This document shows, piece by piece, positions 17,626 to 20,967 of a DNA stretch of 32,000 nucleotides. Each line of letters begins with the position of its first letter. The stretch's first letter is position 1. Source of the DNA: an uncultured archaeon (lineage in GTDB: Archaea; Asgardarchaeota; Thorarchaeia; Thorarchaeales; CAZPUN01). Both the position numbers and the translations under genes were made by a program. The stretch spans positions 1-32,000 of the forward strand of contig CAZPUN010000062.1 of NCBI GenBank assembly GCA_964589775.1. Direction: 5' to 3'. A model generated the notes under the pieces. It saw nothing but the letters and a program-made list of their open reading frames with translations. It was not told the DNA's origin and did not search any database.

Positions 17626-17847
17626 GTGATAAACATGCTTCCAGAATTACTATTCTTAACAAGTGACCTTATGGTTATACTAGGTACAATTGGTATTGCA
17701 TTAGGTGTAATTTCATTAATTTGGCTAATAATTCATGTTGAATACGGTCGTGAATTCTCATGGATTAAAGCAATTTCGGCAATCATACTAGCATCATTAT
17801 TTTTGGGATTTGGTATTAACCTTCTTGTCGTTATGATGGGACTATAA
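17626..17847 (+). CDS. Small membrane protein, 2 TM helices (~70 aa)
   Basis: Two hydrophobic helices joined by HVEYGREFSW. GGTGA at 17625 suggests the ATG at 17635 is the real start. Confidence 0.75.
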   Translation: MINMLPELLFLTSDLMVILGTIGIALGVISLIWLIIHVEYGREFSWIKAISAIILASLFLGFGINLLVVMMGL

Positions 17848-17962
17848 TTAAGGGTTTTAAAACCCTTTTTAGTCCAATATTGTCTTTTATCTATTTTTAC
17901 ATAAAAATTATTTATAGGAACACGTCTGAAAAACATTGTTTTTGAAATATATGCCTAACCGC

Positions 17963-17977
17963 CGAAAAGTTCATAAA
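17963..17977 (+). promoter_or_regulatory. BRE + TATA-like archaeal promoter
   Basis: CGAAAAG (BRE) directly followed by TTCATAAA. Standard spacing predicts a TSS near 18000, where the structured element begins. Confidence 0.55.
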
Positions 17978-17999
17978 ACCGTAAGCATATAACTTAAAC

Positions 18000-18207
18000 T
18001 AAGTAATTTGAGGATTTAGAATAGATCGAGACGTAATGTATCGAATCCAAAATATCCTCAATAGAGATATGGAGCGAAACGAGAGCTCCCATTCGGGGGC
18101 ATAGCGAATATATGCGCAAAATGACTATTGTATAAATAGTCTATACGTAAAACCTCCGCTGTTCATTGCGGAGTGTATGTCCGATATGATATGGTCATTT
18201 ATACTTA
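18000..18207 (+). ncRNA. Candidate structured non-coding RNA or cis-regulatory leader (family not recognised)
   Basis: Closing helix TAAGTA/TACTTA. Stems TTGAGGAT/ATCCTCAA, GGAGC/GCTCC, GCATA/TATGC, AAATGACTAT/ATGGTCATTT and CTCCGC/GCGGAG. G-U wobbles favour the + strand. No tracked ORF overlaps it. Confidence 0.55.
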
Positions 18208-18241
18208 ATATATGGTTTGTTCTTTATGGAGTGAGAATAAA

Positions 18242-18853
18242 ATGAGATTAGTTATGATAGGCGGAATGGTTACGGGTATTGGCCTAGCCTTGCTAGGTAT
18301 TGCCCTCTATAACCAATCAATCATTCCATCAGCAGCAGAACATAATGTTGTTTTTGTATATGGTGCTATTGCTGCTTTTGGGCTTGCACTTCTAATTGCA
18401 ATTATTGATACATTTACAGATTGGACTGGATATGTTCATCCATCAGAAATGCTGTTTTCAAATGTGTTCACATTTATCATGGGGCTCGCAATCCCACTTG
18501 TTTGGGGTTATTTCTGGTATGACATGAGAACAGTATTTTACACCATTGCTGAAATGCTGGTGATGGCATATATCTTCTTATTAGTATTCATTAAAGTGCG
18601 ATTCAAAATCACGACTGAAGAAGAACTAGAAATGGCAGAAAAAGTTACAACTGCAAAGTTCTTACTTGTAGCATTATTAGTCGGAGGAGTTATGGCTGCT
18701 GTTCAGTATGGAATGAATTGGTTGATTGCTACTTATGAATATACTCTAGCTAGTTTAGTTCTCGGTGGTGCAACAAGTATATTCATCATAGCCATGGCTG
18801 CCTTATTAGATATAAAATATGAACCAGTTTCTGCGGGTTCTGATGCGGAATAA
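18242..18853 (+). CDS. Hypothetical integral membrane protein, ~6 TM helices
   Basis: Six hydrophobic segments. GGAGTGA at 18228-18234 favours ATG 18242 over the track start 18212. Confidence 0.85.
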   Translation: MRLVMIGGMVTGIGLALLGIALYNQSIIPSAAEHNVVFVYGAIAAFGLALLIAIIDTFTDWTGYVHPSEMLFSNVFTFIMGLAIPLVWGYFWYDMRTVFYTIAEMLVMAYIFLLVFIKVRFKITTEEELEMAEKVTTAKFLLVALLVGGVMAAVQYGMNWLIATYEYTLASLVLGGATSIFIIAMAALLDIKYEPVSAGSDAE

Positions 18854-18862
18854 TTTAAAACT

Positions 18863-18880
18863 CCTTTTTCTATTTTTTAT
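18863..18880 (+). terminator. Oligo-T terminator candidate
   Basis: CCTTTTTCTATTTTTTAT just downstream of the stop. Confidence 0.35.
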
Positions 18881-18996
18881 TAAAAATTAATATAGGTATT
18901 TGTAGTATATTTTATATGTATTTAGACCTGATAATATATTTATATTAAATTAGGTTGTAAGAATTATTTGAAAAGGCATTTTTGTGGCGATGATTT

Positions 18997-20967
18997 ATGG
19001 CTGATACAGATACAAATCTTTGGCTCGGTTGGAAAATAAACGATAAGAATGAGGTTACAAAGGAAAAATTCGAAATTGATCCAAATCTTCTTAGACGACA
19101 TATGGGTATATTTGGAAGTACTGGTTCTGGTAAGACTGTGTTAGGTAAGATAGTACTTGAAGAAGCAGCATTACACGGTATTCCTGTTATTGCTTTGGAT
19201 CCACAGGGCGATATTGCGAGCTTGATTTTACCGGGTGATGTTAAGAAGTTAGAGAAGAAAGGTGTTCCGGCTAAACGATTAGAAGACTATTTGAAGAAGG
19301 TAAAAGTAAGAATATACACTCCTGCTAGTACAAAAGGTCTTCAAATGTCCATTAACCCTGTCAAATTACCGGATAAGAAAGCAGACCCCGATGATGCTAT
19401 TAGATTAATGGACAATTCGGCTAGAACTCTTGTTGGGGTCTTAATGAAGTTAGGTGGGCTTCCGAAAAGTAATCAAACCAAAGCAATTGCTGTTATTTAT
19501 GAAGTAATCCGTACTGCTTGGAAGAAAGGCATGGATATTAACGACCTTGATAGTCTGGCAGATCTAATAATGAGTGACGAAGAAACATTAGGTGTTGATC
19601 TAGGTCGATATATGAAGCCTTCAGAACGTGAACGTCTATCTTTGGCTATTCGGAGCCTTACTGTTGGAACTGCTGAATTGCTATTCTCTGATGAAGGGCA
19701 GTTCGATTTTAATGATTTATTAAGGCCTGTAGATGGCAAGACTCCCATAAATGTTATCTTTTTGAAGACACTTCGCTCTGAAGAAGAAAAACAGTTCTTT
19801 ATTGCGATCTTCTTAAACGAATTATATTCATGGATGCTTCGGCAAGGATTCAGTAAAGACCCTCGTATGGTATTATTTGCTGATGAAGTAGCGCCTTTTA
19901 TTCCCTCTGGAATGGCAAAACCCGGTCCTAAAGAGGCATTTCTGTTGATTTTCCGACAGGCAAGAAAATACGGCGTTGAATGTGTAATTGCGACACAAAG
20001 CCCTAAGGATATTGATTACAAGGCATTTGAGCAATTCAATACTATTGCCTCAGGTAGAATAACATCCGAACAATCATTAAAAGTGTTGGAGCGTATTATT
20101 GAGCCTATCGTTGGTGAAGTAGGTACTGATGAAATCATAGACAAGATCACAAAGACAAAAACTGGAAAGTTCATAATTGTTAATCCTGAGCTTCCAGGTC
20201 GTGTCGTACGAATTAGTACTCGCTGGCTATTGACAAATCATACGACACTCACTGAGAAAGATGTCGTAAAAATAATGGCCGAAGAGCAAAAGCGACTGGA
20301 ACTTCAAAAGAAATTAGAAGAAGAACGTTTGCGAAAGCAAAGAGAGGAAGAGGAACGACGTAAGCGTGAAGAACAAGAACGACTTGAGCGCGAGCGACGC
20401 GAACGTGAGCGACAGAAAAAGCTTGAGGAAGAACGACGCAGACGAGAAGAAGAACGAAAGAGACGTGAAGCGGAGCTCAGAAAGTTACGTGAGAAATATA
20501 AATATGCAAAGGACAATGAAAAAGTCTTCGTAAGGAAAGGCGAATCGAAGCCGGAAGTCTCCTATGAGGACATCATGAACGCATTTGTAAATAAAATTGC
20601 CAAAGTTGCAAAGACAAGGTATGGCTTACCTTTCTTGAAAGAGTTAGTCTCGGACAAAGAGTTAATCTATGAGAAAGCGTTGACATATTATTACAGTGAA
20701 ACAAAAGCCGCAATTAAGAACGGACTAGCTCATGTTGAAGTTCGTGAAATTGAAAAGAACGGCAAGAAAAAGAAAGTAAAGATGCTTATTTATGATTTCG
20801 AAAAATTGCTTGACGAAGTTCTCGAACAGATGAAAATTGCCCAACCCGAATATGTTGACCCTGAACGACTTAAGAAAATGTTCGAAAAATTAGTAATGAC
20901 TTCTCAGAAAACTAATCTGCTCGAGCGAATACTCCTCGGTGAGCCATTCTTAAAATATAAAATATAA
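18997..20967 (+). CDS. HerA/FtsK/VirB4-superfamily ATPase (DUF87/DUF853-like) with ER/K charged helix and C-terminal domain
   Basis: RHMGIFGSTGSGKT (Walker A), LDPQGD, LFADEV (Walker B), arginine-finger ARKYG..IATQSP.D. Confidence 0.9.
   Translation: MADTDTNLWLGWKINDKNEVTKEKFEIDPNLLRRHMGIFGSTGSGKTVLGKIVLEEAALHGIPVIALDPQGDIASLILPGDVKKLEKKGVPAKRLEDYLKKVKVRIYTPASTKGLQMSINPVKLPDKKADPDDAIRLMDNSARTLVGVLMKLGGLPKSNQTKAIAVIYEVIRTAWKKGMDINDLDSLADLIMSDEETLGVDLGRYMKPSERERLSLAIRSLTVGTAELLFSDEGQFDFNDLLRPVDGKTPINVIFLKTLRSEEEKQFFIAIFLNELYSWMLRQGFSKDPRMVLFADEVAPFIPSGMAKPGPKEAFLLIFRQARKYGVECVIATQSPKDIDYKAFEQFNTIASGRITSEQSLKVLERIIEPIVGEVGTDEIIDKITKTKTGKFIIVNPELPGRVVRISTRWLLTNHTTLTEKDVVKIMAEEQKRLELQKKLEEERLRKQREEEERRKREEQERLERERRERERQKKLEEERRRREEERKRREAELRKLREKYKYAKDNEKVFVRKGESKPEVSYEDIMNAFVNKIAKVAKTRYGLPFLKELVSDKELIYEKALTYYYSETKAAIKNGLAHVEVREIEKNGKKKKVKMLIYDFEKLLDEVLEQMKIAQPEYVDPERLKKMFEKLVMTSQKTNLLERILLGEPFLKYKI
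20278..20500 (+). repeat. Low-complexity E/R/K coding tract (single alpha-helix-like)
   Basis: EEERLRKQREEEERRKREEQERLERERRERERQKKLEEERRRREEERKRREAE; QKKLEEER occurs twice. Confidence 0.8.

Follow-up and report, generated by a model that had tools for sequence, protein, structure and literature searches.

In the window, by which we mean the whole 32,000-nucleotide stretch of Thorarchaeales DNA analysed here (contig CAZPUN010000062.1, positions 1 to 32,000), the longest non-coding gap very probably holds a PATE, an IS605 derivative without protein genes, that was inserted long ago and carries an omegaRNA relic, a reading to which we assign a probability of about 0.93. An autonomous element of the parent family is present in DHVE2 archaea, and the window copy consists of its left end and promoter joined to the 3′ end of tnpB and the right end. 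The region is of a known kind, a PATE with an omegaRNA relic, and is not a new RNA family. The finding explains structured ‘RNAs’ with their own promoter that lack an Rfam match in archaeal intergenic gaps, and it connects repeats that carry no genes with a TnpB system of DHVE2 archaea that is intact, seems to be active, and has a predicted TTAC motif.

Fold and true extent of the element

The gap measures 364–394 nt, depending on the choice of start codon, in agreement with the ~390 nt of the sequence-only reading, which had drawn positions 18000–18207 as an unrecognised structured RNA. The motifs and helix strands listed in that reading all lie where it placed them. The interval folds at −57.6 kcal/mol (z −3.23, with 0/200 dinucleotide shuffles equal); Rfam returned no match at the gathering score and noise alone at E ≤ 10, and no tRNA was found in the region. 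The closed multibranch that had been drawn is not the favoured fold, as judged by pairing probabilities that are low for the long arm (0.04), TATAC/GTATG (0.03), hairpin 1 (0.23), and GCATA (0.20). Among the drawn helices, the outer helix (0.90) and CTCCGC (0.99) alone hold. The GACTATT hairpin, treated earlier as an alternative, has a pairing probability of 0.95 and is the ancestral one. In both the outer helix and the long arm, the 3′ strand belongs to the host flank, beyond the element; a 10-bp helix with the flank arises by chance in 4% of shuffles and is found in 1/32 copies, and both the outer helix and the long arm are compatible with chance. The proposed mutually exclusive switch folds are not conserved: the long arm needs the flank, and the switch helices are copy-specific. 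The argument from G-U pairs for an RNA is weak: the reverse complement folds as well or better (z −4.4 vs. −3.3), and a modest bias to the + strand (G-U 83 vs. A-C 53 at ancestral G-C pairs) is seen family-wide. The TATATGC/GCATATA repeat that brackets the promoter is present but private to the window copy, being 37% paired in 25 others. What stands is RNA-type structure on the + strand behind a real archaeal promoter.

The unit 18000–18207 does not correspond to the real one, which is a 268-bp element at 17916–18183 (+ strand, as are all features below) because conservation among copies is bounded by TTAC and TCAG. It begins right after TTAC, ~35 nt upstream of the left limit set by the sequence-only reading, and stops at TCAG, 24 nt short of the right limit; at either end, it can be aligned with the DHVE2 element L108. 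The target tetranucleotide or TAM adjoining the left end (17912–17915) is TTAT here and TTAC in the family and parent. Alignment to the parent and consensus places the left-end DNA guide AAAG (here AAAA) at 17930–33 and, at 17934–53, a left subterminal hairpin that has decayed to 6/9 pairs, counted by eye. The BRE-TATA motif at 17963–17977 lies within the left end. From 17995 to 18165, with an approximate 5′ junction, runs a fossil of the last ~55 tnpB codons, which is frameshifted and contains stops; the translated copies and the parent C-terminus show that it keeps the zinc-finger CxxCG, the RuvC DRDLN..ASxNIL, and the C-terminal tail. Hairpin 1 of the earlier drawing falls within this fossil and is the decayed CG..DRDLN..ASxNIL coding stretch. 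The omegaRNA (reRNA) core at 18068–18183, defined by the covariance model, the parent fold, and pair counts, contains the GGAGC hairpin, the CTCGTCG hairpin (eroded here), the TGCG stem, the GGCTA-type hairpin (GACTATT, 18123–41), and the right-end hairpin. The right end itself (18150–18183) comprises the guide GAAC (here AAAC), the hairpin at 18154–73, and the terminal TCAG (here TCCG). Host flank follows at 18184–18207, where copies lack conservation past the terminal motif; it includes the would-be 16-nt guide (18184–99). Resemblances to RNase P, SRP, and group II introns were set aside in view of the tnpB origin.

Downstream lies a membrane-protein gene of 203 aa with no Pfam family (18242–18853; the ORF may start at 18212), followed by a HerA-like ATPase. 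A search of the ESM Atlas with this 6-TM protein gave no informative match. Across 17626–20967, a small two-helix protein with a weak Ost5 match (E 0.001), the 6-TM protein, and the HerA-like ATPase stand in a row; the small two-helix gene was not detected beside 6-TM orthologues.

Parent family and genomic copies

The left end of the family reads TTAC, 12 nt, AGAAAG, and a 9-bp hairpin, and the right end reads GAAC, a hairpin, a short spacer, and TCAG; the family guides are AAAG on the left and GAAC on the right. This layout follows the IS608 rules. The same layout and the same TTAC-to-AGAAAG spacing flank tnpA and tnpB of an autonomous IS605 from the same order (L050), and the right-end layout of the window copy matches both this element and the DHVE2 parent. 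The target/guide principle has been described (10.1101/2023.03.14.532601).

A 27-nt exact pattern from the core is found at 18 loci, all in Thermoplasmatota/DHVE2 MAGs. Most of these are the last codons of an ORF that ends in a TnpB zinc finger and RuvC motif, and a number of these loci are preceded by tnpA and by a left end like that of the copies. The locus L108 (JAVRLK010000029.1) encodes a Y1 TnpA (PF01797, E 4e-29; NF033573) and a TnpB (NF040570, E 4e-73). In a blastn comparison with the Asgard genome, this element matches over no more than its initial ~100 nt and its final ~140 nt, and in tblastn the parent TnpB matches only over residues ~359–409. These protein matches fall on the repeat copies, the best being 57% over 47 aa with E 5e-9. 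Each end of the L108 element has its counterpart in the window copy, whose BRE-TATA aligns to a BRE-TATA-like motif ~30 nt before the tnpA ATG in L108, L114, and L120 and is the parent’s tnpA promoter. The DHVE2 IS605 shares both ends, the promoter, the tail of tnpB, and the omegaRNA core with the window copy, and the genome copy closest to it has 83% identity over 130 nt. It differs in its length of ~1.7 kb with tnpA and tnpB and in its young, near-identical copies; it is a close relative and not the exact donor. L108:1412-3133 and L104–L121 represent a young multicopy IS605 family with an intact ~409-aa TnpB in vent DHVE2 MAGs. Its tnpB frame spans the whole omegaRNA, with the stop in the right-end hairpin, and its TnpB is a candidate thermophilic TnpB with a predicted TTAC motif. 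Shorter PATEs of the family, formed independently, occur in DHVE2 genomes at L113:2526-2731 and L105:3635-3820.

A reRNA consists of the tnpB 3′ end, the right end, and ~16 nt of flank (PMC8612924), and PATEs often encode omegaRNAs (10.1101/2023.03.14.532601). The covariance model R1 matches 18068–18184 with 94 bits, the window copy being part of its training set. The parent omegaRNA folds into five helices (z −4.6), the same as those of the window core; across the parent family, folds reach z −4.6 to −5.9 and stem variants keep pairing. The stems go back to hairpins of the omegaRNA and of the transposon ends, and the ‘unrecognised ncRNA’ turns out to be the omegaRNA region of a TnpB transposon in a multicopy gene-less IS605 derivative. 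The parent omegaRNA also matches the whole HgcC model (RF00062; E 7.5e-5) at 28 bits, where 50 would be needed to reach the gathering score, the least-decayed genome copy scores 14 bits, and the window copy gives no match; the parent omegaRNA is a relative of HgcC and not a member. At TnpB loci from the same order, the omegaRNAs belong to other families. A K-turn-like bulge (GCA, then G-A, A-G, A-G pairs) can be drawn on the TATAC/GTATG stem of the consensus and parent (window 18142–18179); it is exclusive of the TGCG stem, is degenerate in the window copy, and may simply follow from the DNA guide motif.

In its own genome, which also encodes actin and profilin, the region gave 18 matches by blastn, 45 by iterated HMMs, and 52 segments with the full model. 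The 33 near-full-length copies have a median pairwise identity of 59% and a maximum of 84%, and they adjoin unrelated genes in both orientations. TTAC precedes 16/33 copies, against a background of 0.45%, and TCAG ends 11/33; neither terminal inverted repeats nor a target duplication was seen in end alignments inspected by eye. As regards the criteria for PATEs, the window copy is 268 bp long with broken frames, and there are ~45 loci. The copy tree is star-like, and the spectrum of changes is dominated by C>T (0.23) and G>A (0.22). Among copies, changes are about as frequent at paired as at unpaired positions, RNAalifold on the full alignment recovers 4 pairs only, and genome copies are 79.5% paired vs. 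77.9% when shuffled, a slight covariation; the family decays nearly neutrally, but not wholly so. A second deletion class of ~220 bp, which lacks the zinc-finger stretch, is found at G000 C23, C27, C39, C50, and C53 (L032–L034, L036, L038) and is less decayed, with up to 84% pairwise identity. There were at least two founding deletions. In the copies at G000 C21:44145-44498 and C64:25942-26236, a second, tandem right end follows.

Neither tnpA nor tnpB, and no TnpB cognate to the omegaRNA, was found in the assembly, a 64-contig MAG of 96.75% completeness in which multicopy IS genes may be unassembled. A search for guide targets with the copy flanks returned targets at control level, and a stricter pattern gave 0 matches over the genome. 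For want of a close relative, no empty site could be seen; a 401-nt stretch is identical in two other assemblies, and orthologous loci without the element are too distant to align. By blastn, the family had no match of weight in 40 relatives and, in 399 other Asgard genomes, one left-end match only, within an unrelated PATE. The covariance model, run on 151 genomes, found the family in its own genome only (0/150 other Asgard genomes), and plasmid, phage, and viral collections held no family match. The lack of family matches in these other Asgard genomes, together with the closeness to the DHVE2 element, suggests horizontal transfer among vent archaea, in either direction. One copy lies at a metagenome contig edge upstream of a phosphate-transport cluster (L044:1-124, Ga0164318_10016472), and a PATE of another family in the phylum (L048:1490-1740, G313) has a similar TTAC left end with a different omegaRNA and right end.

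History, promoter, and present role of the window copy

The proposed history begins with an internal deletion that would have fused the tnpA promoter to the omegaRNA region. With TnpA acting in trans, the derivative would have spread in the single-stranded peel-and-paste manner, inserting itself behind TTAC. As long as TnpB remained, any copy could have made an omegaRNA with its 3′ flank as guide, and guided cleavage of the empty site would have helped that copy to persist. Today, the window copy is probably immobile because all four transposase-recognition motifs are mutated (TTAC to TTAT, AAAG to AAAA, GAAC to AAAC, and TCAG to TCCG); the left hairpin is also broken. Given this probable immobility and the lack of a known protein partner among the genes of the assembly, its RNA fold is most likely a relic. 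The promoter may still fire.

The one unusual hint in this copy is the possible retention of its promoter for the next host gene. Here the promoter is 0.88 identical to the consensus, vs. 0.58–0.73 for other parts. In a post hoc test on 31 copies, some of them related, with rough ORF starts, promoter identity to the consensus was 0.85 in 8 copies located ≤80 nt upstream of a same-strand ORF vs. 0.70 in 23 others (P 0.0015, or P 0.027 with a four-copy subclade merged); the left end, tnpB relic, omega core, and right end of these 31 copies display no such position-linked difference. The window copy belongs to that four-member subclade (support 98/97 for the 3′ part and 85/94 for the whole element), in which every copy has a same-strand gene a short way downstream; the host genes in question are the 6-TM/HerA pair, one for a small GTPase of the Ras family, and two unknown ones. 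Their promoters share a pairwise identity of 0.89 vs. 0.60 in other quartets, with the left end and omega core not better kept. This pattern, together with the resemblance of the motif to the AAAGGTTAATA box upstream of 6-TM orthologues, leads us to consider tentatively, at odds clearly below even, that the tnpA promoter has been kept by selection and transcribes the downstream host gene or genes, the omegaRNA relic being a passive ~240-nt 5′ leader. Besides the small numbers, patchy gene conversion could yield the same pattern, and a TATA-like TTTATAC/TTAATA between element and gene (18198–18211) may be the gene’s own promoter. Such a role is compatible with a PATE origin and, if the promoter bias holds, the copies would form a clean natural series in which an Asgard archaeon has co-opted IS605 relics as promoters for its own genes. 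For the RNA fold itself, selection has weaker support than it has for the promoter. A rival reading, which we regard as improbable, is that the RNA is functional now, either as a domesticated ncRNA or regulatory leader derived from the omegaRNA and common to the subclade, or as a trans guide for an unassembled TnpB. The hairpin 1 core and right-end hairpin are invariant in the subclade, double changes there number 13 vs. 5.8 expected (a figure inflated by shared ancestry), and a PATE-derived RNA in Halobacterium is transcribed and affects growth (PMC4615843). Yet the window copy alone falls short of significance, both in the ancestral pairs it keeps (25/30, P 0.06 vs. random decay) and in its double changes (3 vs. 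1.6 expected, P 0.17); 3/7 pairs of its CTCGTCG hairpin are lost, the omega core is 0.59 identical in the subclade against a background of 0.60, and the subclade is partly defined by right-end similarity. The lack of a TnpB in the assembly and the control-level flank targets also speak against this reading. The fuller scenario, in which the four copies, no longer mobile and without their nuclease, are domesticated, the promoter drives host genes via an omegaRNA-derived leader with selected stems, and the cassette was probably acquired horizontally among vent archaea, is unlikely. If true, an Asgard archaeon would have made a TnpB guide-RNA cassette into an element for the expression of its own genes.

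A host riboswitch or a stand-alone novel ncRNA specific to the 6-TM gene would account for the good folding z-score, the promoter, and the missing Rfam match. In its strong form, this reading is refuted by the transposon origin, and we give it very little credence: the copies have unrelated neighbours in both orientations, none of the 14 orthologous loci read has the element, and the switch helices depend on the flank or are copy-specific; direct descent from tnpB coding sequence also counts against it. Orthologues of the 6-TM gene are found in 68/86 class members and HerA adjoins downstream in 14/14 loci read, but the element precedes the gene in 0/14, where only a short promoter region is found. 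Of the suggested leader for the 6-TM gene, a weaker form persists: the transposon promoter may transcribe the gene through the relic. An archaeal H/ACA guide, for which AUA after two hairpins of the original drawing had been cited, is less probable still. The consensus after hairpin 1 reads AGAAAAA, the second hairpin needs the flank, the window copy has no K-turn, and neither the ANA box nor a K-turn is conserved in the family alignment. The evidence as a whole favours an old PATE insertion with an omegaRNA relic.

Comparison with known systems

Four described systems bear on this PATE and its omegaRNA relic. The ISDra2 reRNA (Karvelis et al. 2021, PMC8612924) is likewise built from the tnpB 3′ end and the right end, followed by a flank guide; ISDra2 uses the motif TTGAT, in contrast to the IS608-type TTAC/TCAG here, where the nuclease gene is deleted and the omegaRNA is predicted from sequence. 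HgcC and the archaeal sotRNAs (Gomes-Filho et al. 2015, PMC4615843) have the right-end hairpin and terminus in common with the parent omegaRNA and, below the gathering score, are relatives only; HgcC had already been linked to tnpB 3′ RNAs and to a PATE-derived RNA in that work. The omegaRNA-only IS200/IS605 elements of Geobacillus stearothermophilus (Meers et al. 2023, 10.1101/2023.03.14.532601) differ in that the proteins are present in the genome and excision was shown, whereas here none were found and the ends are mutated; they share the arrangement of left end, omegaRNA, and right end and depend on TnpA and TnpB in trans, as proposed for the window copy. The PATEs of Haloquadratum walsbyi, especially HqIRS71 (Dyall-Smith et al. 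2011, PMC3119063), belong to another sequence family and host, and no strain-specific insertion was seen for the Asgard copy. Like the family described here, they are protein-free and multicopy, have IS605-type near-terminal palindromes, and lack terminal inverted repeats, and their heterogeneous copies include some with a disrupted C-terminal coding piece.
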